Assembly: GCA_000934665.2 (NCBI GenBank)
Contig: JYFJ02001496.1
Span: 1 to 64,000 of the forward strand
Length of the DNA: 64,000 nucleotides
Direction: 5' to 3'
DNA from: Catajapyx aquilonaris
Lineage: Eukaryota
A program made the position numbers and the translations under genes. Of this stretch, positions 2,597-62,424 are shown in pieces. How positions within the stretch are numbered: the stretch's first letter is position 1; each line of letters begins with the position of its first letter. Under the pieces are notes generated by a model. That model was not told the origin of the DNA, did no database searches, and worked only from the letters and a program-made list of their open reading frames with translations.

Positions 2597-5500
2597 TTAG
2601 CTCTTCTGCTTCTCTGAATGTTTTTTCCGAGACTTCACCTTCCTTTTCTTCCTGTACATAACTGCAAGGGGTGTGTCTGAATCTGACGAGTCCTCGTCTT
2701 TGGGAACGGGCTGGGGTTTCCTCTTCTTCTTCCGCTTCTTGTGGGACTCTTCATCTGACTGCGACCCATCCATGCTCTCCTGATGGCGCCTCCAGGCAGC
2801 TGCCGTTCCCGTGACGTAGTCCTTGCAAAACTGCTTGGTGTGCTTCCACAGCCCTGATGATGACTTATACACCTTACCGCAATCGTGACACGTATGCCTC
2901 CCTTCTTTTTCAGCCAACTCCTTGAACCAGTTGCTAGTCGCCTCGGCATCCAGGGAGTTCGAGTCCAGGTCTTGCTTCGGCTCCTTCTTTGGCTCTGACT
3001 CCATCTCTGGCTCTGATTTTACCTGTGACTCAGTCTCAGCTTTGGGCTCTGGCTCTGGCTGAGACTCAACTTCTGGTTGAGAATCGGCTTCATGCTGTGG
3101 GTCAGCGGATGGTTCTGTCTCCTGCTCTGCGTCTGACTTGGTTGTTGATTCCAACTCAGTTTCTGACATGGCCTTCGATTCAGGTTTGGGAGAGGTTTCC
3201 TTATGACGTGTGGAGTGAAGCGACAGTGGCAGGGAGCTGTCGTCGTCATCAAACTCGTACACATCAAATGCAATGGGTGAAAACTTCGAAGGGCTTGCCT
3301 CCGGAGTGGTTCGGTTGCGAGACACTAGCCTTGGTTTTGGCTTTGGGGTAATCTCAGATGAGGGGCTGGTCTTGGGTGTTGCCCCTGCCGTCTTTGTCTC
3401 TGGATTTGGTTTGGCCTTCACCTGAGCAAGCGGTTTCGTCTTCGTATCTGACGGTGGCTTATTCACGTCCAAAATAGGTTTTGGTGCAAGTTCTGGAGGC
3501 GTTTTTGTTGCAGGCTCTGAGAAGATCTTTGCCCTTGCCTCCATTATTAATTTGGTCTTTGCTTCCATGAGTGACTTGATCTCCAACGCTGGTTTCATAA
3601 CTTCACATGAGTCTTTCTTGGTCTTCTTCGCAGCATCTGACGTCAGCTCTTGAGACGTCTCTTGAGTTGCCCTGAGTAATTCAGAAGCAGTCTTCTTGTT
3701 CCCTGCCTCCAGAGAGGCTTCCTGTAGGGACTCCGGTGCTTCCCGAGAAGCCTCCGGTGAATCCCAGAGTGCCTCAATCTCAGCCTTGATGGATGGTACT
3801 TTAGGTTTCTTCACAGCCTTCTTCTTCGCAGCATCCTTCTTCCCTGGTTTCTTCACCTTGCCTTCACACTTCACCTTTGCTTTCATCTTCTTCAGCTGAT
3901 TCCGCCACGGTTCCAGCTGATCCACCTCCCCCGCCTTCCTGCTGGGCCTCCTCATGGTGGACAGGTTTAGTTCACGGAGTGCTGCCTCTGCCATTGCCCT
4001 TACTGAAAGGTCGGACACTGCAGTAGGTCTGGAAACTTGGCGGTCGTCATTCTCCCCTTGGAGGATGGCCCTCAGCTGCGACTGGCCCGATGTGCTGTCA
4101 GCAACAGATTCAGTGTCTCCTTCCAAGCTGGTTGAGGATGGAGCTGGTGAGGGATCCCTAGAGGCGCTTCGGCTGCTCTGGAGACTGGTGCATATGGATG
4201 GTGTTGGAGGCAAAGCAGCACTCGGGACGGAGGGGACATGCTCCAGATTCATGTGTCGCAGCACCTGGTGGGGCGTGTAGAAGCTGATTCCACACTCAGA
4301 GCAGAGGAAATTGCCCTCACTATCAGTGTCACTGCCACAGTCAGAGTCGGTGTCTGCGTGGCAAGCTGGAATGAACAAACGTGAAACAATAAGCACATTA
4401 TTTTTACACATCACCAGCATGTTCACGATTTTGAAAGGGCCAGTGCACTTCAAATATTTAAAATGGGTACATACGTTCTACATTAGAGATGAGGTAGGAC
4501 TTTTCCACCATGACAGGTTGTGCGGTGTGCATGCCCCTCATAAAACTGAAGTGGCAAAAGCCATCCCGCACATGCATGTCCGACTCCCACTCCCTGAAAA
4601 GTTTCAAATGAATAGTTAATCCACAATATTATTGTGTGACGCAAAGGCTGTCATTGCCAACAATCAACTCACTTGTGCTTTGTACGCGCATGCTTGAGGA
4701 GAGACAGGTCGGTGGCGTACTTCTCATCGCAGAGTGCACACTGCATGGCCCCACCCATTGATCCTTCCACATAAACGCCTGAAATATTACACGGTCAAAT
4801 TAGTTCACCTAATTAAGCACCATTACATTAATGAATCAGATCATGTAATATTTCTCAGTCTAACGTATCTAAATTCTGCAACTTCTACGCTCATACCTTG
4901 AAACGGTGTGACAGCTGGATCCTTGCTGTCTTTTGCAGCTTCATTCAAAAATGTCTGGAAGATGTCCATGCTCTCCTTCTTGAAGACCTTTCCAACTCCT
5001 AATCAGGGTAAAGTGTCATTTGGGCCATCCGAATATCAACCTTGCTTAACTCACCTGAAATGCTAGCCAAATTGGGACTCGCAGTGGCATTCCTAGGCAT
5101 AGTATTGGGTTTGTTATAAAGTGCTGGAGCCTGGAACTGAACTCTCTCACGGTGAGCCAGTGCAATGTGTCTGTTGCGTGAACTGATCTTCACAAACCTG
5201 CAATTGAAAACCAAAATTTGCAATCACAGGAGTTCCGACATTCACTGAGGAACTTATCGTCATGGAGCAACTGACTCGACTGCTGTAACAATTTCTATGA
5301 CCCACGAAACGCAACAACTTCAATTGGATTCAAGATCAACGCATACATTTATGAGGCACTAGAAGCAAGGAGTACTGACCGGTCACAGCAAATGGGGCAA
5401 ATAAAAGCCCGCTGGTCGTATGGGACCTCCCACATGCTGTCTTTCTTCTTTCTCTCAATCTCATTCTCAATGCTCTTCTCTGCTTGGTCTTGGTCTGCCG

Positions 5501-8500
5501 AAGTGGGCTCAGGCGCAGCGAAAGTCTTGGCCAGAACCCGAGGTATGTCAGCTTTGGTCAGTATGTTAAGCTTTGGAAAGGTCAGCCCCATGCTGATGGT
5601 GTCCTTCTGGCCGCGTCCTCCCCCTTCCTTCTTTCCCTTGTCCAGGATGCTGTTCAGGGCTCGCTGGAGAAGTCCGCCAAGGGCATTGGACATCTGGCTT
5701 TTCAGACTGTCATCTTCCGCTTCACAACCTTTCTTCAGATGTTCACGGGTGATGTGCTGACCCAGGGATATGGCATCCGTATACAGCTCTCTGCACACAA
5801 AACACACTGCTTGACGCTTCAGGGGAGCGCCCACGCCCTCTTTGCTCACATTGGGTCCTGTAACTAAACATAATTGATGTAGAATCTCGCACAGCCTCAA
5901 CATATTCTTTATTTTTACCCCGTGATAGAGCCATTGGCTCTCTTAGGGGGGGAGTTCATCCCATTTTTTTTTTGTCAGGAACTCTTTGCTTTTTACTTTT
6001 TGCTTCGCTTTTTAGGAAGGGATAGGGATGGAAGGAAGCGGCTGTGGCCTGTTCACAGCCTCAACATATTACAATGCACATGAGTTGAACCGCTTCTTAG
6101 AGGCCAACTGCAACAAAACCTTTCCTCACCTTCTTTTGGTTTGTCCACAGACACATCGTCCTTGCTCTTGTGGAACTTGTTGATGTGCTGCTCCAGTGCC
6201 TCCAGCCCCAGGAACCTCCTGCCGCAAGTGGGACACACCATCTCGGTCTTCCCGTACACTGCCCTCATGCCTCCTCCACTTTCAGCAACCGGACTGCTCG
6301 ATTTTCCCTGGCCCAGAAGTTCCATCAGGTCAGTCTTGTGAATGTACCTCATCCGATGGGGCTTGGCATTTTTCAGCCACTTGGGAGTCGGCTCCTCCAC
6401 CTTAAGTGGCAGTTCCACTTCCGCCACCTCCTCTTCCTCCTCCTCTTCTCCCTCCCCTTCCTCCTCTTCCTCCCCGTCCTCATCCACTGCTTCCTTGGCA
6501 CCAGTTTTCTTCGGTGGAGGATACGGGTTGTCTAGGTCAAGGAGATCAGGGTTCTCCATTGGCTGGAGACTACCTTCACTCTCCTTGTTGTCATACACAA
6601 AGTCCTTGGCAGTGTAGTTTCCAGCAGCACCCAACTCTCCCAGTTGCTGGAGCATGTTCATCTCATCACTTGTGGCTCCCATGGCTTCTTGCAGCTCCGA
6701 GAGTGACTGTGGGTCAAATGGAGAGTAGATGAAGTAGTTTCCCAGTTCGGCTCGTTCGGATGCCTGTTCCAAAGGAGTCGGGGCTTCATCCTGGAGGACT
6801 TGATTCACGCTTCCGAGGATGCATCCAAGGCTTGTCTCAGGGGTTGGGTTCTCATAAGACGGCTCACCCCAGTTGGGCCACGTTGGATCAGCACCAGTTG
6901 GGGTTGACCATGGAGAGACAGCAACACATCCAGGTGGATTTGGAGGGAAGCCACCATCTGCTGGGTTGTTGGGCAGCTCATTGGGATGGTATGGATATAA
7001 GTCAGGTTTTTCCTGGGAAGCATCTTGCAATGTGTCAGGCGCTTCTGCCAATTTGGATGTGGTCTTTACATGCACCCCTTCTGCAACCTTTTCAGGGAGT
7101 ATTTCAGGCACACTTTCAGGTAAAGTGTCTGGCGTTTTTTCACACCCCTGTGCCCCCTTGCGCACATAGTCACCCATTAGGTTCTTCAGTTCACGCCTGA
7201 GGCGTCTTGGAGACTTCTCACGCTTCTTCTTTGCTTCACCCAACTCCTCACTGGACATCCGCTTAAGTGCCCCACTCTGCAGATCTGACTTCCGCTGCAT
7301 CAATGGTATGTCCTCGATATCTGCCTCGCCATCTGCATCCATGCTTTGCTCTGCATCTTTCGAGTCACCTGATGCATCCTCGTCCTGCATGGCACTCATC
7401 AGCTTGGCCAATGGGCAACCAATGCTCAAGTGCTTTATCAGATTCTTTTCATCACTGAACTCACACTCACAGTGAGGGCACATTGTGTCAGTGGTTGCTC
7501 CAGATACGTCTGGTACAGTTTCAGGCTCGTCCTTTGGCAATACCTCATCATCCTCTGGTCCATCCCAGCTACGTATGAAGTCACTAATTGCCTCAATAGT
7601 CTCAGGCTCGGGCTCCCCGTTGGTTGGTGCTTTTTTGCTTAGGTCATCTTGTTCCCCTTCATCACCACTGTCAATGATTTCTTCCTTCACCACTGGCACC
7701 GCAGTGTTTGCCAGTGCGCGCTTCTTAGAAATTCTGCTCTTCTTGTTCTTCCACCAGCCCTTCTTACCTTTCGTCTTCTTATACTTCCTCAATGTAGAAA
7801 CCGCAGCCTTCTTCTTTCCACCCTTCACTTTTTTGGCAGCTGTTGGGACATGCTTGTTCGTGATTACAGAATGAGATTTTACAATGGCTGAATCAGACGC
7901 TGTTCCATCTTCTGCAGCAGGTTGAATGTCAGACCCAGAAGGCAAGTCCAAATCTGAATGCACAGCATCCATATTAGTGTCTGGCTTGTCGACATTGGCA
8001 ACTTCAGTGTCCTTTGAGGTACTGTAATTGTCAACAATAGCACCACCGGAAGTGTCCAAATTGGCAGCTGTTCCATCCAAAGTAGTACCCACAGTGTCCA
8101 AACTATCAGTTGGAACTGAATTAGTATCACATGCATCCACCGTGGCAGGAGAAGCACCCAAATTAGCATCCTGGACACCAAGTGCTATGGAAGAAGGGTC
8201 CGCATCAGCAGCTGGAACACCCAAATCAGCAGGTACATTGTCCAAATTAGAAGAGTCACCATCAACAAGCAAGGTGTCCCGTTTGGCAGCTTGCTTTCTG
8301 GCTCCCTTTTTTGATGCTTTCTTCTTCTTTTTGACAGGCACTGGTTTGGACATAACTTCGTCCAATGATGCCATATCAGCATTCAGTGCTGCAGATGCTG
8401 AAGCCTTCTTTCTCTTGGCCACCATCGCCAACGGCACCTCATCCAAAGGCCTTAATGCATCATCTTTTTCCTGACTCTTCTTTTTACTGTCAGGCGCTTC

Positions 8501-11500
8501 ATCCAATTGGACAGCAACATTGCCCAGGGCAGCTTTCTTAACAGCCTTCTTCGTCTTCTTACCTGACGGTGCCTTACGGGGTGACTCTTCTAATGCACGC
8601 CTAATAGTCTCCTCATCTAGACCTCCCTTGTTCCCTGGGCCCTTTTTCTTTTTCTTGGTGGAAGTTTGCTGCAGTGGCACTTCTTCTAATGGCATGGGCA
8701 CATCGTTTGTAACTGCCGTCTTCACTGGGTTCTTTTTCTTCTTCCTCTTGACAGGCACAGGCTCTGATGATGCCTCATCCAATGGAATGTTAGCCTCAGC
8801 CAGCACATCTGTTCCGTCTAATCCCTTCTCCTCTTCGGCCACAGACTGCGATGATGCCTCATCCATAGGAATAGAATCATCATCGCCAAGATCCGCTTCT
8901 TCTGTCACTACCATCGCCTTTCCCTTTGCCACTTTCTTCCCTGCATGTTTCCTCTTCCCTGTCTTTCCCCCAGTGTTGCCTTTCTTCCATTTGCTCCTCT
9001 TCTTCATCACCTTGTGCTTCTTCACACCTTTCTTTACCTCTACCACTGCCTCAGTCTTGGGCCCCTGCTCTGCATCAGCTACCTTCCCTTGCTCCAAGGC
9101 CAGTGCCAAAGCCGCAGCAGCAATTTCGTTCTCAGGAGACAGGACAGGAATCTCTGCCAGACTTTCTTTAGTCTTACGAGGCATCCTCACCTTTAGGAAA
9201 AGTAACAATGCATGGTAAAAAACACTTGCAAACAAATACATTGTGCATTCTACGCAAAAGAAATCAATTTCTTTAAGATTTCAACACCGGAGTGTCTCAC
9301 CGATGCAAGAAGTTTCAGTTATGGCAATAATATGCTCACCTTCAGAACAGGCAGTTCCTTCTGCAACTTGGGCATGTCAGCTGGCGCAATGGCCCCCTTC
9401 TTTGCTTCCTTCCCCTTTCCACATGCACTCACATGTGTGTGCAGGCGTGTCAGGTACGTGAAGCGCCTTTCACAGAATGGGCAATTGTGGCTCGCCTTCT
9501 CCTTCTCCGCAGTGGCAGCTTGCACCTTGAAACCGTTGCTCTCCTTCAGTTTCTTAATGTACTTGCACTTTTTGCCATGGCGATGGTAAGCAGACTTTGT
9601 CTCCAACTGTACCCCACATCCTTGGCAAACAAGCTGGAAGCTGTTATCTTGTGAAGCTTCTTCAGGTACTGTATCGTCAGGCACAGGGTCTGGTATTGGG
9701 GTTGCTGCCTTCTTCCGCTTGACTGGAGGCGCAGCAACTGTTGCCACAACAGGCTCCAACTTGCGCTTAATTATTTTGATCTTGTTCAGCCCTTGCTTAG
9801 TCTCAGGAGTGTCTTGTTTTACAAGCACACATTTGAAATGGTTTTTCGTCTTCTTCGACATCTTCCCCTTGCTCACCTGCATAATGATAGCAATTTCACT
9901 AATCACAATTCCACTAAAAGAAGGGTGAATGAGGATTGACATATTAGGACATCAAAGAAACTAAGGTCTTGTGCAACATAAGAGTAAGTGCAATTATTCT
10001 CACCTCCATTATGGTATCCATCACACTGGACATATCAGCTGGCTCAGGTTCTGGCTCTTTCTCCTCAACTACCACTGCCGCTTTGCTTTTCTTTATCTTA
10101 GCTGCATTGACAGCCAGCTTTCCCTGAAACTTGGCCTTGATCTTGTTGAGTGCGACCTGCTTGTTCGCCAAGGCTTTGCTGTTGTGCAGCAGCTTCTCCG
10201 CCGCCATTGTCAGCACCTTTGTCTTGGGGTCCTTCTCCTTGTTGGAGACAAGAGTCGACTTGGCAGGCAGTTTTTTGCCTTGAGCAGGCTCCACAGGAGG
10301 AACCTTTCCTGGCGAGGTCTTTGGGAGTTTTGGTGGCTTCGGCAGCCTCGGAAGAGACACTGACGTAATCTGCAGCAGAAGCAGTAAATCGTCAATCAAA
10401 ACACAGAAGAGACGAGGATAATTGGGGGTAGTGGAGGGAAGCAATGGGCATGAGCAGAAGTAACTAGATCATTCTGGCTAATAGTACCATTTTTTTACAA
10501 AATTCAAGTGTATTTATCAGATGCACAAACCAGAGAGTAAAATCAGTTATATTTGTCATGGTTAAATAACCTGGGATACTGTTACATATGCCTGTTAATA
10601 AGTACGAGAACCCAGCCTCAATTGAAAAATTATTCAATCCATCATTGAAATAATGTTCTTTGCGGCCATTGCCATTTACATTAACTAGGTACTTCCCATA
10701 ATAAATTCATAAACACTAATAGACAACAAGACTGCAGTGATACACCATGCAATAACACGGGGGAAAAAATCAATAAAAGAAATGCAACTTCACAGGGAAT
10801 AACTAACATTTGACTGTAAATCTAAGTAAGAATCATAGAAGAATTTTTAAAATGAAAAGAAAAAACCCAGCAAAACTCTCCACACCCATTAATCTATGGG
10901 ACAAAAACTTGCATATCCTACAAAATTCGTGCTTAAATAAGTGCCAATTCTTTCTAAAAATAACTCCAGAGTGAGCAGCAATGTGAAGGGGAGTAAGACA
11001 TGTGCTTTACTGCAACTGTACCTTGATCCTTTTCCTTAACATGTGATTCTGCGAATAAGAAAAAAAAGTGTCTAAACCTGTTCTTAATTTCACCTGCACC
11101 TCAAGTGGCACTCAGTCAGTCTCAAAAGGAAATGTCACACTGATCCACACAAGTGCAGCTACACTTACACTGTTGATGGTTCCCTGACTCCTCGTTTTGA
11201 TTTCATCATCATTAAACTGGAGGGCACGTCGAGTGGCACGTTTGGCAGGCAAGTTGGCAATGAGCTGCTGGATAGGATCATTCTCTGCAAGAGAAGAATG
11301 CAATACAGTCAATAACATGGGCTACAAAATGAGCCAGTCAATTTAATGACACTTTCATAACCTCACATGGAATTATGATTCAGAGAAGTAACATATGCTG
11401 AACTTACTCTCGTTGGACTTGAGCTTTCTTTTGAACTTTATGGGGCTTCCTGGTATGTTCCGCTTCATGCCCCTTCTTCCCTGATGTCTCCTCCTTCTAC

Positions 11501-14500
11501 TCCCAAATGGTCTCCACTTCTTCTTCTTCATGGGACTGTTCATCCAGGTGTAGTCTCCCCCACACTCCAGCATGTGACGATGCAGCTCCCCAGTGGAATT
11601 GCAACTACGTCCACACTTTGAGCATTTCCCATCCCCGGCCTCCAGGGGCTCCACCTTTCCAATGGCCCCCTGGCTCTCCTTGGAGTAGCAAAACTGCTGG
11701 TAGAGGTCCAAGGGAAGGTCTGACCTAATGTCTTCCACCTCCACGTGATGTGCACACCACACGTTGGGGTGCCCAGCAATCTTGTGCTCTTCCAGGTCCC
11801 ATGGGTCTAGAAAGCTGCTCCCGCACACAGTGCAAATGTATGTGCGAGGCCGGATCCACTCCCCACTCAGTTCCGGCTCTGAGGGTACTTCCTCCTCGCT
11901 TGAAGGCACGGGGGAGGGTGACCCTGTGGAAGGCAGCTCATTCTTCTTCAGGTACAGGCCTTGTGGGAGTCTCGATTCCCATTCCAGTTGCTCTGTGGTG
12001 CCATTTTGCAGCTCCAGAGCAGCTAACTTGTCCATGTTGTGCTGCATTGCCACCTATGCAAGCACGTATTGTAAATCATATCATGAAAGATGATGAGTTA
12101 AAATTCTTTACAAGTAAAAAAATTACTGCAGTTGCCTTTGCAACATTTTAATCATGGCACATGGATTAATTCCATCCTGGCTGTGGACAACACAACCCTC
12201 ACATAAATCAATGGCACGGTTAACAACAATTCAATCCGTACAGTTAGTGCCCTCGATGTTTGTGCTATGAGCATTTTAAAATCAACAACTATGGTGTAAC
12301 ATTGTGTTTCTCCTTGACCTCACTTAATCATCAATGTGCCCAATCAGCTACGTTTATCAAAACTGCAGCCACAAACTTTTCACAATCAAAATGCTTACTA
12401 GGTAATCAACGCCAAACAAATCCAACAAAATGTACACTGGAAGTGATACATATTATCTACTCTTGCAGTCTTCACAATAACTTAGGATAGCTCAGAACTT
12501 ACTTACTTACAATAGACTTACAATAACTTAGAAAAGCCAATGTCTGCTATGGAAGGCAGCAGTTTCAGGTATTATGGCTATGAATTACCAAAGTTAGGCT
12601 ACTTGTTTTGTGCTGACAAAAACAATGGCATAAAATAATCCTAACGCTTTTTGTCAATTACAAACTACTCACTCACAGTCAGTGTGATTACTAAAAATTG
12701 CAAATATGATGCAGTCGTGATTTCCACCTTTCTGTAAGGTCTATTAACAACTCCGATGTGACTGCCATCGAAACTCACATGCAATAAAGGCAATTGAAAT
12801 AATATGTACCTGTGTGGTGATGTCAAGCTGGGACATCTCACTGATCAGATTCCCGTGGGTCTCAAACCTCAAGCAGCTGCTGGGAAAATTGTACTTGGTC
12901 CATGAGAACCTCTTTGGGTGTTCAACCTTGACTCCTCGTTTGGAAGCCTTGCTGCTAGACTGGCTTGCCACCCTCTTCCCGTCCAGGTGGTTCTCCAGGT
13001 TGTCCAACACATTGAGCATGACCTGGTCGTAGAACTGAGTCTCTGGGTCAGGAGGAGTCTGAGGCCTCTTCTCCTCTGGCGGCTTGGAGGGAGGAGGTTT
13101 GGGAGCAGGCAGTTTGGAGGTAGATGGCTTGGAGGCAGGGGATTTGCAGGGAGGAATTTTGGAGGCTGAAGGTTTAGGGGCAGGAGATTTGGAGGCAGGT
13201 GGTTTGGCAGTAGGGGGCTTGGAGGGAGGGGGCTTGGGGCTAGGAGGCTTCAGCAATGGAGCATCAGCAGGGGGTGGCGCAGAGGGAGTAGGGGCAGCTG
13301 AAGCAGCAGCCATGGCAACAGTATCTAGTTTGTTGTGGCTCGGGTGCTTTCCTTTCCGACCTGTCCCATGGGCCAGCCTGTAGTGACGACACATGCTGAC
13401 ATAGCTGGTAAACTGCTTGCTGCACACTGAGCATGAATAGCCCAACTCAGCCTCAACAGTAGGGGTGCTAGGAGCATTTCTGACACTGGCCGTGGCAGAG
13501 GCTTCAGCCACTTCAGTCTTGTCTTCTACCTGTGAAGTGAAAGACATGTTTGTGATGTTACTCTAGCAAACACTGCTAAATTGATGAGACACTCATGAAG
13601 TGATTTTTAAAATACCTGAGGTGTAGATGGGGGTGAAATTTGAGCTTTGGTCTCCTCCACTGGCTCCTCCAGCTGTGGCGGTGGCTGTGGCTCAGGAGGA
13701 GGTTCGGGCAGTTCACACATGTGATGGCAGTCTCTGTGAGCCACGAAGAGGTGCTGCCTCAGCTCCTCAAGAGTCACCCACCCCTCCCGACAATAGGAGC
13801 ATGGATGAAAGGCAGCACTCTCGTGCAAGCGTTCGTGCCTCTTCCGGATTGCAAATGACAGGAATGACTTGTCGCAAAAAAGGCAGAAGAACAGCCGAGC
13901 ACCACCGTGCATCACCTGATGACGAGCCAGGATCTGGCGAGGGACGAAGTGAGTACCACACCGGTCACACACGCACCCAGCTTGTGCTGCATCCAGTGCA
14001 ATAAGATGTGAGCGCAGTTCATCCTTCATATGAAAGGGCATTCGGCAGTTGTAACAGTAATACAAATAGGGAAACAGGATTGACTCGGAGGAGGAGGATG
14101 ACCCTCGGCTGGCTTGCAGTTGTTTCAGGTCGCCTCCTGTCCCAATCTCCTGTGCCTTGAAACCAGGTGACTCCGTTTGACTGTTGATGAGTCGATCACT
14201 GATTACGATGCCACTGTTGGCGATGTCCCGCTCAGTGAGGTACTTGTAGTTGATGTGCACCTTAGAGGTAAAGGTTGGAAAAGTTTCAAATGTTGCTGTG
14301 TCAGCCAGACTACTGGTTGTTCTTAAATAAAGTACGTTCATTCAACATACAACTTATGTGATATATATATACCACTTTATTGTGCCCCACTTGGCACGAT
14401 CATTGTAGGCCATAAAGTTCCCAAAATTATCAATTTTATGCCATCCAAGTGTAATTTCATGGTGAATTAAGTGAACTTGAATGAGGGGATGTGGGTTACT

Positions 14501-50389: not shown

Positions 50390-53300
50390 TTAGGCACTGC
50401 TCTCAGTGGTGGTGTTCTGCACTGGCTGTGACACTTCTCCCTGTGAAGAAAAACCGGATGTAAAAATCCTCTAGCAAACTAGACCTCCAGGTTAATCATC
50501 ACTAACTCACAATATTAACGTGCCATGCATTATTGCAGTTATGGAAGGTAACTAGGGATGCAAAATTCTCTGCATCAAAAAATCAAATGACACTTCAGTG
50601 TCACGGGAAAATCGAAAAGTTCTGTCCGGTTCTGTTTTATAGCAGTGTTCTAGAAAAATTAATCCAGTCCCACATTACATCTCAGGAAACTTAGTCTCTT
50701 ACAAGTGTTAAAGCTCTGCATAGTAGCATATCGCAAATTATGCATCTTCGTATTTTAAGCAACATGCTGACATTATTTTGTTAAGTCTGCACCTACTAAG
50801 CCAGCTTAAATAATGCTGTTACTTCAAGTACATTATTTTGTACCTTACATGTGCAAATATTTTATCACTCAGGGCAGAATTCAAAGGGGTTGTTTAAATT
50901 TAAACATGCTATCATAATAATGTGACACAGGTTGACCAATCTGGCCAGACCTTCCTGGCTGCCCGGAGCTTTTATAGCCGACACCTTGGACACTTGACGG
51001 GGAAAACTGTCCAGATTGTCTTTGCCAGCCATGTGCCAAATAGTGCTTGCTACCAGAAGGTCACATTCAATTTGTGTGGGGGTCGTTACTGGTTTGTAGC
51101 TAATCCACCAGTCTTCCCACATGTTATTGTGAAGGTTGGGCATTTGTGAGCAGCACCGCCAAGGTGATGATATTGACATACTGAAATGCACTTTGTAGGA
51201 GTAGGCGTTTTATGTGGTTTGGACTACCTCTCTGAAGTCTGCCCTGAATTTTTCACTATCATCGTAGAAACTAGTAACACAGCACAAAGTACAACATCGA
51301 GTTGGGAAATGAACAAGCCATGCAGTTATAAAAGAATAGGGAAGTGAAGAGGACAATTCAGGATTTAACTGTGCCCGCCACTACTCACATTCTTTGCACC
51401 GGCAGTAACAGGAGGTTCAGGCTTGACTTCAGCTGGCTCCGGCTAGAAGTATGAAAAACACAAGAAAGAAGGAAGGGTGGAGAGAATGTGCATGCAAGAA
51501 AAAATGCAGGTGTAAAAAAACAAAGCAAACAATGCCATGAAAAGCAGGTGACTATGAAGAGAAATTCTCTCACTCCCTGTGAGGGGCAGACTAACTCACC
51601 TTCTCTGCCTTCGGCTCTGCCTGAGTGTCAGACTGAAAAATGAGGGAGAAGGGAAAAAAAGTCTGAATCACAACTACCTACAGTGCTCAATTTTAAAAAC
51701 AAAAAAAACAGCATGCAACATTGTGTGGCTTTGAAAATATGGGGAAGCATGAGATCCATACCTTCTCCCCACCATCTTCTCCCTCACGAGGCATGCGGGA
51801 GCGTCTGCGTGGTGGGCGGCGCCTGTAGCGCTGGCCCCCCTCCTGTCCACCCTCCTGTTCCTCTTCTGGGACATTCTGGAAGTTCCCAAAACAATGTGGT
51901 CCATAAGCATTTGCTATTCCATCATGCAAGTATATAAGGATAAATTCACTAACCGGCTCATCCTCCGCGCTGTGCGGGCGCCGTGGGGCTGGACGGCGGT
52001 AGTACCTGCGATAGAATCGCCTGGGGGGTCCACCCCTACGTGGGCGCCCATCATCATCCCCAACAACTTCCTTCCCCTCATCTGTCCCATCCCCTTGCCC
52101 CTGCAAGTCCCTTCCCTGCGGAGGAGGGCGGCGTCCACCCCCACCGCCACCACCTCCACCCCCGGCCGGTCCCCCCCTATAGAAGCGTGGAGTGTATCTA
52201 CCCCTTGGCCGGTAGCGCCTAAGCCCGGCAGTGGTCCCTTGCCCCTGCTGCCCTTCTCGCATCATATCACGGGCATCTTCCTCATGTTCCCCGCCGTCTG
52301 ACATTCCACCCATGTCCTCTTCATCACCACGACGAGTGCGAGGACCTCTCCTCCGCGGGTAATAGCGGCGGTTCCATCCTCGACGGCGGCGGTCAGCAGC
52401 ATAAGGGGAACCCTTTACAGGGTCCCCATTGGGGCCCGTCACATTGGCTGCTTCATTTCCCTTCTCTCCAACAACCACGTCAAACTCAACAACCTCCCCA
52501 TCGCCTACGCTGCGGACTGCCTTCTTCGGGTTGTTCTTAATGATGGCCGACTGGTGCACAAACACATCCTCCTTTGTGTCATTCCTACAGTAATATACAG
52601 AGGTTACATTAGCATCATATTTCATGGAAGTGACCTGCTGATAAACAAGACTACATTCAGAGATACAAATAGCAACTAGTCCCTGACATTTACATCACAC
52701 CTCCCAAGTAATTATGAATTTGACATGTGGAGGCAATATGGCAAAGTGGTAACACTTGCAACTACGGATCTGCATAGGTTCTGGTTCAATTGAGTTTGCT
52801 TTTCATATTGCCTGCCGAGTTTAATCAGCATCATGGTAATAAATACCCACTCCATTTGCCATAAGTCCACATTAAGGGTAACAATCCCAAAGGAAACATA
52901 ACTGCACAACATTTCATTATTTAATAGAGCAACTGGAATAATACATTATCTCATACCACTATTTAAAATTACAATGCATGAAGCTCATGAAATGCCTCTG
53001 TTGGCACAACCAAACCATGACTTCAACAGTCAAACTTATCTCAACATCACAAAATGTTAAGGGCAGTGCTCGGCATCTTGCCCTGCATGTTAATGCAGAA
53101 AATCTCTAGAAGTGAACTTCTATTGAAACAAGGATAAGCTTCATGGAATTAAATAATCGCAATAACCAACAGGTCATAGAATTAACTACAGTATAGTGAC
53201 TCACAACCACAGTTTTTAGCATGCCAAATTCCCTATATTTTAAGGTGAAATATGTGCAACCAGATGTTCCAACTTGTCAGATGCCTGGAAGTACTTTCCA

Positions 53301-56300: not shown

Positions 56301-57276
56301 GCCACGTCCTTGCCTTCCAGGCTTCAATAATTTATTTACCATTACAATCAAGCCAGTGCTTCTTATGCAACACACCTGCACTCTGACACCCAAAAAGCAA
56401 TCATTAAAACACTGCCACAAACTGAGCCACACACACACACACTTAAGTGTTTTGTGGATCTCCACAGCCCCATTTTAACATGACAGTGGCTAATTACTAG
56501 ACAGCAGGTTCTGCTTCAATTTTCTGCACCACCAAAGTTTGTCAACCTTCTGAATGGTCCATTTCTCTCAGCCACAATCTGCCCCATGCCTTGTGTTCCA
56601 AGACTGCTGCTGTTGTTTGGCCATTCCAAACGGGAAGTAGGGGTTACCATGGCTACTGGAACAGGGCAACTTATTTCCCCAGATCAAACTCGGGTTCCGC
56701 AACGACATTTGGAGACCTGGCCGCAGAAGCAACGTTGGGGTAATTTGTTAAAAATTGTATGGACATTAAGTATGGCTTCTGGCAATTTTATTTAGAAACA
56801 CATGAGGTTAATGACCACTTTAACAGGTATTTTTTTTTAAACCCCAATTTGCTTGCTTGGAAAACAGGTCTGCATAGCGGGTACTTTTACTTTTAATCCA
56901 TTTAACCCAACCCTCGCGCCATGCCAAGCCCAACATTCGAAATGCCGCGCTCCATTTGACCTCCCCACAGCAACCTCGCCCGACCCGCCCAGAATCCGCC
57001 CCATCGAACAACCATCCGGGATGACCACCTGCACCCTTCGATTCATCTCGATTCTCGCTTCCCATCCCAATATATCCAGTCCGCCCAACCCCGGCTTCTC
57101 CCCACCACCATCTTTCTTTATTTTATTTTTTTCGTTCTTTTCTTCCCCCCCTCCCTCCCTCCCTCCCTCCCTGTCCCCACCACCACCCGCCACCATGTTC
57201 GATATCCCTTACCTATAATTTCCTTCTGGCTCACAACCTTTGGTTGTTCAGGCTGCTGCTTCTCTTGTTCTGCCAT
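50390..57276 (-). CDS. yps: Y-box binding protein (cold-shock domain; Ypsilon schachtel/YBX1-like), ~336 aa
   Basis: Exons 57276-57213, 54613-54550, 52584-51954, 51875-51762, 51632-51600, 51442-51389, 50440-50390. [76 protein letters not shown]. Alternating Arg-rich/acidic tail, and C-terminus [10 protein letters not shown] as in arthropod Yps proteins. Confidence 0.95.
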
Positions 57277-57419
57277 GTTCGAACAGGGGGATGAAGGAGG
57301 ACGATGTTCGTTCACTCCTTGGCCGGGGGCTGTTCTCTCAACCGGCTAGGTGGAAAAAGCCTCAGCGATCTCCTCGCGCACACACGCCCTTCCCGTGCTT
57401 CACCCACTTTTGTTCTTTA

Positions 57420-57920
57420 CCGCACTCAACATGGCGGCGATCCACCCCCCACCCTTACCCCACTCCCCCTCCCCACCCTTCTCGATACGATACTGCCGGT
57501 CGCACAAACATCGATACTCCACCATTTTCACACGGTCATGTCCCACCACTCCATATCGATATCCCAAGAATCGATGTTCACAAATCACACACCCCCCCAC
57601 CGCCACTCCCTGGCCACCTCCTTCCACCCGACCGGCCTCAAATGTGACCGACGATCCCATTGGCTGGGTCTCATATTGGCCGCCTCCGAACGTGCCGGGA
57701 TTGGCTGTGGACCGGGCCGGGAGCCNCCCACCTTCCACCCCCTCCATCGCGTCTTTTTTTATTTAAAAAAAATTAAGACGGTACGGATCGGGCGCATTTT
57801 AACGCCTAATCCGGCTGGTCCGGCCCGATTTAATTTTAGACAGGTGGTAAAATTGGAATCGAAGGGTAATTTGCACTCTGCCCCTTGCCCTGCTGGGTTG
57901 GTCACGTGAGGAGGTGTCAT
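57420..57920. promoter_or_regulatory. Bidirectional housekeeping promoter between YBX (-) and NSUN5 (+)
   Basis: The start codons are ~640 bp apart, head-to-head. Perfect DRE TATCGATA at 57554-57561 plus several CGATA. Three ATTGG (CCAAT) boxes at ~57659-57705. YY1-like ATGGCGGC at ~57430 and 57919. Confidence 0.65.
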
Positions 57921-60900
57921 GGCGGCCTCCACGTACGTACTACGTAATTGAGTAATCGAGTTCATGAGCACGGGGTTTTCACGTGTGATCTCATCAAAGG
58001 GTGAGTGATTGGACGTGGCTTGGACCATGCCGGTGGTCGGGGTATGAGGTCAAGGGTGGCACGTAATCGGAGGGCATGTCATAGTGGTGTAAAAGTAAGG
58101 GGTTGTTGGAGCAGTCATTGGCAATATGTGTGGGCAACAATAAACGAGTAGGCTACGAAGGAATGGATGGAGCACCACCAAATCACCAGCCCAAGAGTCA
58201 CTAACTAACCCAGTGGTGAAGCCTGGTTCACATGAAAGAATATTATTGTCATCCCATGTTGCAAATGGTTTTTCATTTTTCTACGCGCAGCTACTGGCTG
58301 CTGCTAAGGGTAGGGAAAAAGTACTCGCTTGGGAAGCATGCAAAACTTGTTCGCTGCCCTTGGACACACAAGCGGCAACTACAATTTCACATTATATTTC
58401 TGTCAGCATCATTTGTGAGAACATGCAGGAATAGTATTAGCAACTTTGGGTGAAAGTGCCCATAACTAAAAGGACCTGAATACTTGGAACGCACTGTATT
58501 GTGGTACGTATGTGAAACATATTAAAACTGCATGTGTGTCAGGGATGAACATGATGGCCACCCAAGCGATTTTGAACAAGTAACCGCAGTTTGTCCGTCC
58601 TATTGGCCGAGAGGTAGCGAATGTGTGTTCTGTTGACGGGATTATCATACATCGGCCTTCTGAATATATGTTACTAGCAGCAAAGTGAAGTGCAAGTAAT
58701 GAAATATTCACTATACTCTGAACAATTTCAGGAAGCCAGAAAGCATGAATACGAAGTGGGTAGGTAGATCTACTGTACCCAGGCTGTATAAGGTGGCCAG
58801 CAAAGTGCTGCAGCGAGCAAAGGAGGAAAAGGGCAGCCTGAAGACCTTCATATACGAAGCAAATCACCCCGTAAGTCACATCATTAGCATGAGAGTGGAT
58901 TGGATTTGTTGCTACAACTTGTTTCATGCTGAAATAATGCAGTGGACACAAACCAATTATTTTGTGTGTTTGGCAGTCACAAACCTACTGTATAGAGCAC
59001 AGTGTTAATGTAAATTAGTTGCCCTTGGAAGACAGCTTTTTTGTCAATTGGTTAATATGATGTGGCAAATTCTTTTGACCATGCTCACTTCATCGTGGCA
59101 AAGTTATTCAGTAACTCAGTGTTTCTCAAACTTTTTTGATTGTGGCTCATGTATTGGGACATCATGTGGGCTGCTCTGGCTACTAATTCCAGTCACCAAA
59201 TTCTTATTTGCTAGTCAAATATATATTTTTTTAAATTAATTGTTGATCATGCTGTAGCCCACCTTGAGGGCAGTGGGCCACAGAATGCACTGGGAGTACC
59301 ATTGCATAAACAACTTCATCAGTCCCTGGTTTTAAAAAAACCTATAATCAGTTTTTTATCAGCTCATGGCCTGCAAGTGGGATATAAACTGAACTTTGAA
59401 AACAGCTGCTTTATCTCAATGTGAAACAGTGTTTTAGCATTATAGACCTGCATGATCTCAGTGACAATCTAACAAGTGCTTTAACATGGGAGGAGATAAA
59501 ACAAGGCCCAAATTTAATACATTGCAGAATATAAAGGCCATTCATTCCCTTACTGTTGAAGCCCTGAAACGGTCTGCTCTGATAGATGACTTGGCTACAA
59601 CTATTGGCCTCTTTGAGGCTGCTCCAAGACTCAATCCCCACCTGGCTCACATTCTCATAACTGAGTTGCTATGGGGCAAGAAGAAACTCTCAAGAGCAAG
59701 TCAGCCTGAAAGACTTGTCACTGAGCTCATGCAGAAGCACCATTCCACAGTGGCATTCTACCAAGAAGACAAATGTGAAGCAGGTATGCATTTATGTCCC
59801 AATTTGCTAATTCCAGAGCCACTAATCCAAAGCAATGGAGCCAAAGGCAGCAGGCAATAGAGGATGGTTTCAGCGTCCAGCCACAAACACCATAAGTGTG
59901 ATGACTGGGTTCTGGGTGTGCACCATGGCCATGTTCACTCTGCCATTTGCATCTTTCTATGGCACACGTCATTGGCTGGATAGCCAAGGGTTTGAGGGTT
60001 TTCAAGTGACGGTGTGGTCAGTGGTAGCAGCAGTAGTGACTGTGCACATAGTGATTGCTGCATATGTGTTTAAGGCATTCAGGGAGGAGCAGGCTGAAGT
60101 CAGACAGGCTGCCCTCATTAAGGATGCTATGAAACTGGAATAGAATGTGTATAACCCTCCCAATCGTTGGCCTCCGTGATTCTTGGGGGGTTTTGTGATT
60201 CCTTTTATTCAAAGGAAATTCCACAATAGAACTTAATAAAACAGGGTACCTGTGCAAATTAATTCCTGTTTATGTAGGACCCAAGAAACCTCGCTACGTC
60301 CGGATTAACACAATCCTGTCTTCAATAAAACATGCCAAGAGGAGCTTTTCGAAGGATGGCTGGGAGCTGATCGAGTACGATTCTGAATCAGTGACCTACT
60401 CTGAGTACCTTGAGAGGATCAAAGAGCTTCAGGGGCACGAGTATATCATGGATTACCATGTGGAGGGGCTGTGTGTGTTTCCACCAGGCACAGAGTTCCA
60501 TAAAGATTCCATGTACCACAGCGGGAGAATTTTTCTGCAGGACAAGGCCAGCTGCATTCCAATGCTTCTCTTGAGAGCTGAGCCAGGATCAAGTGTCATA
60601 GATGCATGTGCCGCACCAGGAATGAAGACAACGCAGTTGGCTGCCATCATGCAAAATGAAGGGTAAGACATTTTTCTCTTTCATGAAGAGTTTCATTTTC
60701 CTATTATTGATGGTGGAAATGTAATGTTATCAAACAGACATATTCGTGCATTGGATTTGGACTCCAGGAGATTTGAGACCCTCCAAGCCATGGTGGAAAA
60801 GGCAGGCGCCACTTGTGTTGAGAACCTCAACCTTGACTTCCTGACACTTGAACCAAGTGAATATGCTGATGTTGATTACATACTGGTGGATCCATCATGT

Positions 60901-61452
60901 TCTGGCTCAGGTAAAGTGAGAATGGACCATTGTCCAGAACTCTGTCAACTCTGCACTGACAGCCTTGCAAAATTTGCATTCAGATGATGTGATAGGAGCA
61001 AAGGAACTGTCAATTCAACTCATAAACAAAAGTACCAGGTAGTGAACTGAACTCAAATTTTTTTCCTTCTCCCTTATGCAGGACAAGTGAATCGAATCAA
61101 CTTGTCAGGAGGACAAGAAGAAGCTGACCCAGACCGCCTCCAACAGCTGGCATCTTTCCAAGCAATGATCTTATCTCATGCCTGCAGCTTCCCAAACGTG
61201 AAACGGATAGTGTACTCCACATGCTCATTGTACGAAAAAGAGAATGAGCAGGTTATTGAGCGTGTGCTGGAGAAGTGGTCAGGAAGTTTTAAAGTAGTGC
61301 GTGGGCTTGGTAAGAAAGTGTGGCCAAACAGAGGATCCAGGGAGTATGGATGGGCCAGACGGTGCATGTATGCTAGGCCCGAGGAGGATCTTTGTGATGG
61401 GTTCTTTGTAGCTGTCTTGGAAAGGGTTACATCACCAGACAATGACGAGTGA
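57919..61452 (+). CDS. NSUN5: 28S rRNA cytosine-C5 methyltransferase NSUN5 (Rcm1), ~445 aa
   Basis: Exons 57919-57932, 58732-58870, 59528-59783, 60278-60662, 60738-60910, 61082-61452. Motifs: VPRLYK..GSLKT, PRYVRINT, LQDKASC, VIDACAAPGMKT, ILVDPSCSGSG, IVYSTCS, DGFFVA. The first 14-nt coding exon (MAAST) is less certain; ATG 58745 is the alternative start. Confidence 0.93.
59835..60143 (+). CDS. VMA21: V-ATPase assembly integral membrane protein VMA21, intronless ORF nested in NSUN5 intron 3 on the same strand
   Basis: 102 aa with two hydrophobic segments matching the VMA21 pattern (MFTLPFASFYG...; SVVAAVVTVHIVIAAYVFKAFREE) and Lys at -3 (MKLE*). It lies wholly within intron 59784-60277. AATAAA at 60235-60240. 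Confidence 0.88.
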   Translation: MEPKAAGNRGWFQRPATNTISVMTGFWVCTMAMFTLPFASFYGTRHWLDSQGFEGFQVTVWSVVAAVVTVHIVIAAYVFKAFREEQAEVRQAALIKDAMKLE

Positions 61453-62424
61453 ACTGAGGACCAAGCATTATTGTGTTACTCGGATAATAAACAGGTGATG
61501 AGTCACATAAAAGTCAATTTCCAGCCACCTTTCCTCATTCCCATGATGAGCTATTATTACTCACCGCCAGCATGTAGTGGCAAAGCTGCTTGTTTTTCCA
61601 GTAATGGTACCAGGTTGGTACCTGTCACCAAATCATTACCTTTTTTTCCCACCCTGTCCCCCCTTCCAGCTTCCCATCGCTATGCAGCAAGCTACGCTGG
61701 GATTGGACAGCCACAAAGGAAGGCCGCCCCAAAAATGAGATGGATTGGCCTTGCTGTTTGGGGGGCAACCCACCATCCCCCAAAAATTGGTGTCAGGTTG
61801 TGTTAGGAGTCACATTGTTCCCAAACTTTTCAAAATGTTGACCTTTGGCCAATCAGGTGAAGGAAGAATTGCACCATGCGCCAATAGACCGACCCCTCTC
61901 TGGACCCAGATTTGTTTCAGGTTCACGGTACAGTGCAGCCCCTGCATTTTGTCTGGAGGTAAGTCCCGGCCACAACGGGGTTATAGGGTTATTGCAGCAC
62001 TTTCCATTCATAGAGCCGTCTGGCATGGCACAGACCTTGACACTACTTCCACCCCCAATTGACCCGAATCGCTAACGACCCCTCGCTCTGAGGCGTCTCC
62101 CGGGCAACTTGTGAAACATCGACACGCGTAGGTGTGTAACTAGCCCTTGCCATGTCTTGACCGCCCTGCACGGTCTCCCTGGAATAAGTCTTAAGTCATG
62201 CCCCGAATGGTCATTCAGTCCCATCGCAATGAGCCACCCGGCAAAGAAGTAAAGTCTGTCCAGGATAGTAAGGTGTCCATAACCGAGGATGTTAGGTCGT
62301 CTTTTCCGACGTGGCAACGCCGCGTCCAGTACCAGCAGGTAGGGGTCAATTATAGGGAAAATGCGTCACGCGACAATCACTAGCAGCGCACTAGTTTAGT
62401 GGCCACCGCGAAAGGGTGGACACC

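Follow-up and report, generated by a model that had tools for sequence, protein, structure and literature searches.

How can a complete gene be expressed from inside a 494-nucleotide (nt) intron of an unrelated gene, on the same strand, when its start codon lies 51 nt past the preceding splice donor? The question is raised by a 64,000-nt stretch of the Catajapyx aquilonaris genome (contig JYFJ02001496.1, positions 1 to 64,000 of the forward strand; hereafter the window), in which an open reading frame (ORF) for VMA21 occupies the third intron of NSUN5. VMA21 is the endoplasmic reticulum (ER) chaperone for assembly of the V0 sector of the V-ATPase, and NSUN5 is a 28S rRNA m5C methyltransferase; to the best of our knowledge there is no link between rRNA methylation by the latter and V-ATPase assembly by the former. 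We find that the window VMA21 is a functional, single-exon gene nested on the same strand in NSUN5 intron 3, and that this arrangement was inherited from a distant ancestor. Expression of VMA21, moreover, seems to depend on a splice site and not on a promoter of its own.

The identity of the nested ORF was established by searching its translation against Pfam, as the initial annotation had proposed. It belongs to the VMA21 family (PF09446, E 3.2e-15, 56.4 bits versus a cut-off of 29.5), with residues 21-82 aligning to positions 1-64 of the 64-position profile. A HMMER search of 1.84 billion representative proteins returned 157 relatives at E<=1e-3 (best 7.9e-13), with identities of up to 58%, while a word-indexed protein search with the VMA21 ORF alone gave no candidates and a PDB sequence search gave 0 matches at E<=1. 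Alignments show the family motifs MFTLPF and WSV..AV.TV in the window protein; residues P37 and V67 do not vary among 42 aligned sequences, nor does MFTLPF among 9. Two hydrophobic segments are present, with peaks near residues 19-43 (1.4) and 55-83 (2.29). Yeast VMA21 carries a C-terminal lysine-based ER retrieval signal, KKXX; the window protein ends in ...MKLE, whose lysine at position -3 agrees with the K-x-D of the alignment consensus, without a canonical di-lysine motif. Judging from its family membership, the window VMA21 would act in V0 assembly. The ORF begins in a good start context (GCAATGG), and no A-tract follows the AATAAA hexamer downstream of it (past 60240). The initial annotation had reasoned that a neutral ratio of nonsynonymous to synonymous substitution rates (dN/dS) would mark the ORF as a retro-pseudogene; among five closely related VMA21 loci from metagenomes the ratio is 0.14-0.63, below 1 in 10 out of 10 pairs.

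As a separate observation on this family, hymenopteran VMA21 proteins have a conserved N-terminal extension starting from MVLIIRN, making them ~140-155 amino acids (aa) long versus ~100 aa. The extension was seen in an ant locus (L008:3869-4288), in one further contig and in a protein of the sawfly Athalia rosae (XP_012251800.1).

Transcript evidence was taken from the contigs of the single public run (X1) that covers this region, whose run type is unrecorded; the contigs are spliced and are therefore treated as RNA-derived. Four of them lie over 57750-62000, with zero mismatches to the window. Contigs of this kind show presence and not absence, minor forms can drop out of them, and their depths are unable to rank the parts of one gene. 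All NSUN5 joints in these contigs have GT..AG ends. One joint, in a contig (record 1) that links exons 1, 2, 3 and 4, skips 494 nt and intron 3 is therefore real, with its donor GT at 59784-85 and the exon-4 acceptor AG at 60276-77 (Table 1). The placement of a complete VMA21 gene in this intron, on the same strand, is thus upheld, as are the positions given by the initial annotation for the ORF, the donor and acceptor, the AATAAA and the exon-4 acceptor, and the exon 2 end at 58870. Two other boundaries had to be moved: exon 1 had been given a donor at 57932 and is found to end at 58000, and exon 3 had been started at an ATG at 59486, where the X1 joint puts its start at 59528.

Joined at the X1 joints, the NSUN5 exons form an uninterrupted coding sequence (CDS) of 436 aa from 58745, in which the domain order of NSUN5/Rcm1 proteins (NSUN5_N, ferredoxin-like, RsmB/F methyltransferase) is kept on successive exons in one open spliced frame. 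By Pfam, the exon directly upstream of VMA21 encodes NSUN5_N (E 1.7e-9), and the exon directly downstream encodes NSUN5_fdxn-like (E 4.6e-20) plus the start of Methyltr_RsmB-F. The window NSUN5 is 46.7% identical to bumblebee NSUN5 over 435 aa and at most 47-49% identical to any of the sequences compared. In a tree of 38 rows made by a quick method its branch is long and falls outside the clade of sampled insects, a placement with weak support (57), and in a protein atlas its exon 4 matched only bacterial RsmB/F-like clusters.

Two features of the 5' part of NSUN5 are recorded here in their own right. Read by eye, the spliced leader contains an upstream ORF (uORF) of 17 codons that begins at an exon 1 ATG (57964) and whose TGA (58746-58748) overlaps the NSUN5 start codon (ATGA), a layout typical of termination-reinitiation control. 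In intron 1 there is a 319-nt transcribed piece (58135-58453, X1 record 2, depth 3.3) without joints, which may represent precursor RNA or else a small transcript without coding function; considered as a leader exon for VMA21 it was rejected, given its low depth and the lack of a donor at its end.

Table 1. Features of the NSUN5/VMA21 locus, in window coordinates.
Feature	Position	Strand	Basis
NSUN5 exon 1, non-coding (transcript-covered part only), donor directly after 58000	57941..58000	+	X1 record 1; joint 58000/58732, GT..AG
NSUN5 exon 2, start codon 58745, 42 codons, phase 0 end	58732..58870	+	X1 joints
NSUN5 exon 3, NSUN5_N domain, phase 1 end	59528..59783	+	Joints 58870/59528 and 59783/60278
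NSUN5 intron 3, 494 nt, host of VMA21	59784..60277	+	X1 joint 59783/60278, GT..AG, contig depth 30.8
Spacer from exon-3 donor to VMA21 acceptor, 33 nt, pyrimidine-rich, ends CAG	59784..59816	+	Sequence
VMA21 exon as transcribed	59817..60277	+	X1 record 3
VMA21 CDS, single exon, 102 aa, 309 nt including stop TAG	59835..60143	+	ORF, Pfam
AATAAA, candidate poly(A) signal, 92 nt past VMA21 stop, 37 nt ahead of exon-4 acceptor	60235..60240	+	Sequence
NSUN5 exon 4, ferredoxin-like domain and methyltransferase domain start	60278..60662	+	Pfam, X1 contigs
NSUN5 exon 5	60738..60910	+	Pfam, X1 contigs, spliced CDS
NSUN5 exon 6, stop codon 61450-61452, contig end 61495	61082..61495	+	X1 contigs, spliced CDS

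The nested ORF is transcribed. A separate X1 contig (record 3; 489 nt, depth 14.6) runs colinearly with the genome from 59817 to 60305 and covers the whole VMA21 ORF, with no loose end or joint. Its 5' end is the first base after a CAG, with no extra letters, and coincides with the acceptor predicted by the initial annotation, whose ...TTCCAG ends at 59816, 18 nt ahead of the VMA21 ATG. That a contig should start precisely at an acceptor by chance is unlikely; the exact start suggests instead that several upstream paths converge at this position and were then trimmed by the assembler. Neither the interval 59785-59816 nor the remainder of introns 1 and 2 is covered by an X1 contig, which is an absence only. 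On the simplest reading the acceptor is functional, and VMA21 would then be dependent on transcription begun upstream. The exon-3 donor is not an obvious partner for it, as the spacer between them is below the smallest intron observed at the locus (75 nt).

The same nesting is found far outside the window, in answer to the question of the initial annotation whether it is conserved in relatives. An alignment-based scan of metagenome contigs yielded 13 VMA21 loci, and in 12 of these an NSUN5 N-terminal exon lies directly upstream on the same strand (9 recognized by tblastn and 3 by Pfam above the cut-off); two of them, L011 and L013, also carry downstream NSUN5 exons. The loci are diverse: L008 and L009 are 98% identical to NSUN5 of the ant Atta colombica, the group L001-L007 has a cockroach protein as its nearest match (53-58%), and for L011 and L013 the nearest named proteins reach only 35-48%. 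In the thirteenth locus (L012) the contig begins 28 nt upstream of the VMA21 ATG and a different ORF of 327 aa follows. L012 shows a distinct compact arrangement of its own: VMA21 occupies 29-283 and, after 127 nt, the uninterrupted 327-aa ORF (410-1393) follows on the same strand with no NSUN5 exon downstream. By eye this ORF resembles the DNA-repair protein XPA.

Published gene models carry the signature of the same arrangement. A protein search with NSUN5 exon 4 recovered at least three gene models with a VMA21 domain among the 120 of 462 matches listed. In the models from Atta colombica, the stingless bee Frieseomelitta varia and the swallowtail Papilio xuthus, VMA21 follows NSUN5_N and precedes the ferredoxin-like domain, abutting the '..PRYVRINT' exon, and thus lies in the same intron as in the window. 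Seed beetles of the genus Callosobruchus supply further combinations. A C. analis protein (CAI5869894.1, 155 aa) consists of the first 36 NSUN5 residues followed by VMA21, and three proteins of 238-239 aa (C. chinensis CAH7750780.1 and CAH7721549.1, C. analis CAI5869891.1) have NSUN5 exon 2 and 3 residues followed by VMA21, while C. maculatus NSUN5 continues into the '..KYVRVN..' exon instead of VMA21. For Drosophila, the excerpt available of PMC3964969 reports CG42358 and CG42359 as given by FlyBase as overlapping or nested genes, and the part available of PMC4317494 names CG42358 as fly NSUN5 (Nsun5). No further mention of CG42359 was found in the literature searched. The nesting is old and widespread across insect orders, being found in models from Hymenoptera, Lepidoptera and Coleoptera, and insect annotations already contain both genes, either fused into single NSUN5-VMA21 models or with VMA21 named as a protein by itself.

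What is conserved extends beyond the nesting to the geometry of the splice sites. With donor and acceptor sites in the loci fixed from the sequences, seven independent lineages show one layout: an NSUN5 donor, a spacer of 33-52 nt with a pyrimidine tract and CAG, an ATG-free leader, and the VMA21 ATG. Spacer and acceptor-to-ATG leader measure 33 and 18 nt in the window, 33 and 14 nt in L013, 36 and 72 nt in L011, 45 and 50 nt in L008, 48 and 7 nt in L005, 49 and 27-28 nt in L001, L003 and L006, and 52 and 67 nt in L010. Going by the background frequency in the same sequences, an acceptor-like site would occur in all seven lineages by chance with a probability of ~1e-4, a rough figure for which the threshold was picked afterwards. 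The NSUN5 exon upstream of VMA21 ends in phase 1 in 8 out of 8 loci tested. Two other comparisons were uninformative: an in-frame stop (in the exon 2 phase 0 frame) before or at the VMA21 ATG is present in 7/7 lineages versus 3/7 and 4-5/7 for control frames, which is not significant, and the conservation profile of L001-L004 and L006 has 80-100% invariant columns nearly everywhere upstream, so that the spacer is not singled out.

Taken together, the acceptor, the recurrent layout and the beetle isoforms point to splicing from an upstream start and not to a promoter within 51 nt. We therefore favour a reading in which VMA21 shares the NSUN5 promoter and is reached by alternative splicing to its own exon, and we give this a probability of about one in two. 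On this reading VMA21 would have no adjacent promoter of its own, its transcription would begin upstream with the NSUN5 promoter as the likeliest source, and an upstream donor, that of exon 1 or of exon 2, would be spliced to the acceptor at 59817 to give the VMA21 mRNA. The exon-3 donor and the VMA21 acceptor would be too close for splicing to each other, and factors bound at one site would probably block the other. By analogy with mutually exclusive exons enforced by steric hindrance, each transcript might then include exon 3, and so become NSUN5 mRNA, or else the VMA21 exon, which would be an alternative terminal exon with its 3' end set by the candidate AATAAA at 60235. The two possible donors would have different consequences. 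Use of the exon 1 donor would give a simple monocistronic VMA21 mRNA. With the exon 2 donor, the NSUN5 start codon would open a uORF of 44 codons ending in a TAA at 59823-25, 9 nt before the VMA21 ATG, and translation of VMA21 would need re-initiation or leaky scanning.

At the 3' end, cleavage at the intronic candidate poly(A) site, which would fall at ~60255-60270, is plausible, and L011 likewise has an AATAAA 57 nt ahead of its exon 4. A second AATAAA is present in NSUN5 exon 4 of the window (60324-60329, 181 nt past the VMA21 stop) and could end read-through VMA21 transcripts.

A stronger version of this idea, which we regard as tentative and on balance doubtful, is that the locus is an ancient either/or splice switch. 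Here the 33-52 nt spacing would have been maintained over hundreds of millions of years so as to let one promoter yield either NSUN5 or VMA21 mRNA, coupling ribosome modification to lysosomal acidification. Spacers of 45-52 nt may be usable as introns in insects.

Several observations weigh against shared splicing, in whole or in its strict form. No X1 contig joins 58000, 58870 or 59783 to 59817, including the junction from 58870 to 59817 that the initial annotation had suggested looking for, bearing in mind that minor forms may be missing from contigs. Record 1, the contig for NSUN5, crosses all three donors unbroken, and such an unbroken path in the k-mer graph argues against a major alternative joint from any of them. 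The shared transcription unit proposed by the initial annotation is thus borne out as regards the acceptor, which is real and conserved, and not as regards the upstream donor, no joint from which to 59817 was seen among these contigs. Record 3 passes through the AATAAA and stops on reaching the spliced NSUN5 path, 28 nt inside exon 4; a part of the RNA that contains VMA21 hence reads through to this exon. In L013 the distance from the VMA21 stop to exon 4 is 71 nt and contains no AATAAA or ATTAAA. In one of the Callosobruchus models exon 3 is connected to an internal position of the VMA21 exon, an event that a strict either/or choice does not predict, and the Callosobruchus and other fused proteins are all computed gene models. 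As an aside on L013 (922-994), the 3' end of its VMA21 mRNA must form differently or overlap NSUN5 exon 4.

Another way to supply the acceptor at 59817 would be a short leader exon belonging to VMA21 itself, with a promoter further upstream, located in one of NSUN5 introns 1 and 2 or ahead of the NSUN5 start, so that the two genes would be overlapping but separate units. A contig that starts at the acceptor next to NSUN5 donors that are crossed unbroken is just what a trimmed, short dead-end leader would leave behind, and a low-depth transcribed piece does exist in intron 1 (58135-58453, depth 3.3). The analogous cholinergic locus is known to have several promoters, according to the portion available of PMC3053374. 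However, the X1 contigs show no leader exon or joint to 59817 within 57750-59816, and the intron-1 piece has a much lower depth than record 3 and does not end at a donor. The closeness of the VMA21 acceptor to the NSUN5 donor is not needed by an independent promoter, and a separate promoter would leave the constant 33-52 nt distance unexplained. The Callosobruchus models, moreover, use NSUN5 coding exons ahead of VMA21. We consider a private leader unlikely.

Intronic nested genes often have promoters of their own, and transcription of VMA21 might simply start at or near 59817 from a core promoter overlapping the end of exon 3 and the 33-nt spacer, with the acceptor motif being incidental. Record 3 does have 59817 as its first base, without a loose end or any sequence before it, and 22-27 nt ahead of that position there is an AT-rich ATTTAT. 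Set against this are the improbability of a contig starting by chance exactly after a CAG and the recurrence of the acceptor-like motif in 7/7 lineages (chance ~1e-4). A start at the acceptor would also leave three lineages with 5' leaders that measure 7, 14 and 18 nt, and with leaders so short the acceptor position is unattractive as a transcription start. Beetle and ant gene models, in addition, splice upstream exons to the VMA21 region. A transcription start at this point therefore seems to us quite improbable.

Most of the RNA that contains VMA21 could also be an NSUN5 isoform or precursor kept from 59817 through exons 4-6 and no separate mRNA, from which VMA21 would be translated poorly or not at all, for example a regulatory isoform prone to decay. 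This would account for record 3 being unspliced into exon 4, and the depth of exons 4-6 (41.3) is nearer the sum of 30.8 and 14.6 than 30.8 itself, in so far as contig depths, which cannot rank the parts of a gene, may be compared at all; ordinary 3' coverage bias explains that difference equally well. An intact and constrained ORF with a good start context in many lineages implies, on the other hand, that VMA21 is translated somewhere, and plain intron retention would cover 59785-59816, where no contig lies (an absence only). We see little prospect for this explanation.

Addition of a trans-spliced leader to the VMA21 exon, as happens to internal or downstream genes of animals that trans-splice, is more improbable again. 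An acceptor without a visible cis donor, inside another transcription unit, is compatible with trans-splicing, as is the position of the window NSUN5 outside the sampled insect clade, itself weakly supported. Yet the first position of record 3 is 59817, so that no remnant of a leader is left on the 5' end of the contig in this one run, and the same architecture occurs in ants, beetles and moths, which to our knowledge do not trans-splice. A search of the whole window against Rfam gave 0 matches, and thus no spliced-leader RNA family, which is weak evidence, and no intronic snoRNA. Lastly, the view that the ORF is a recent non-functional retrocopy or pseudogene, suggested by an intronless CDS where the available part of PMC13142848 describes three coding exons in mammalian VMA21, can be set aside as a most improbable one, for the ORF is intact, covers the full Pfam profile and is transcribed, lacks an A-tract after its AATAAA, occupies the same intron in 12/13 loci and several insect orders, and has relatives with dN/dS below 1.

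The initial annotation had drawn the transcripts from a YBX/NSUN5 promoter. The cold-shock (YBX-type) gene of the window (51696-52694, Pfam CSD, E 1.7e-12) lies on the minus strand, and is therefore divergent from NSUN5 and a separate transcription unit. A minus-strand ORF at ~57118-57345, with an ATG near 57275, may be the first exon of this gene; if so, YBX and NSUN5 would diverge from a promoter region of ~600 nt rich in C-tracts. Further away, at 2600-14341 on the minus strand, is a run of long ORFs of up to 1075 aa with scattered C2H2 zinc fingers.

The locus is of interest first as a clean and deeply conserved packing of two unrelated housekeeping proteins, and second in that its splice-site geometry suggests a simple physical means of dividing transcripts between NSUN5 and VMA21. 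It also explains a recurring annotation error, namely the VMA21 domain attached to NSUN5 models in ant, bee, swallowtail and seed beetles, and gives annotators a rule for separating NSUN5 from VMA21. V-ATPase and lysosomal acidity bear on ageing. Should the promoter, exons or read-through RNA be shared, manipulation of insect Nsun5 (genetically or by RNA interference (RNAi), including in published lifespan work) might alter VMA21 output as well. Lifespan extension has been reported for RNAi against CG42358 in the portion available of PMC4317494.

No paper was found in our searches that pairs VMA21 with NSUN5 or describes VMA21 as nested, none among those listed treats VMA21 as bicistronic or linked to a host gene, and the structure of the VMA21 gene is not mentioned in the available text of PMC5716037 and PMC8519577. 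In C. elegans the clone names of VMA21 (R07E5.7) and NSUN5 (Y53F4B.4), as they appear in the source excerpts, are unrelated and the two genes are probably not nested there. Mammalian VMA21, as described in the accessible part of PMC13142848, is X-linked and free-standing, with three coding exons and alternative start sites of its own (the main human isoform being VMA21-101). Unlike this gene with its introns and promoters, the window VMA21 has an intronless coding part embedded in NSUN5, although both are of the same family and size class. In Drosophila, Nsun5 (CG42358) is the same host gene and has an adjacent-numbered neighbour, CG42359, which FlyBase gives as overlapping or nested with it and which would, going by the ant, bee, moth and beetle models, be VMA21.

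Mutually exclusive use of exons 2 and 3 of alpha-tropomyosin is imposed by steric hindrance, the donor of one lying too close to the acceptor or branch region of the next. An either/or choice between NSUN5 and VMA21 would follow from spacing in the same way. The alpha-tropomyosin exons encode versions of one protein, in contrast to the VMA21 exon, which is an entire gene for an unrelated protein, complete with start, stop and likely poly(A) signal.

Of the systems known, the nearest is the cholinergic locus, in which the gene for VAChT (unc-17) lies in the first intron of that for ChAT (cha-1), an arrangement kept in nematode, Drosophila and mammals, with the mRNAs made by alternative splicing and from several promoters (from the section available of PMC3053374). 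As in the window, a whole ORF is contained in one exon inside an intron of a same-strand host, and the arrangement has been conserved for a very long time. ChAT and VAChT share one pathway, unlike NSUN5 and VMA21. The positions differ too: VAChT is in a first intron, whereas VMA21 is in intron 3, after coding exons, with its acceptor pressed to within 33-52 nt of the preceding donor. Shared splicing is known for VAChT and ChAT, and for NSUN5 and VMA21 a shared 5' exon is what we propose.

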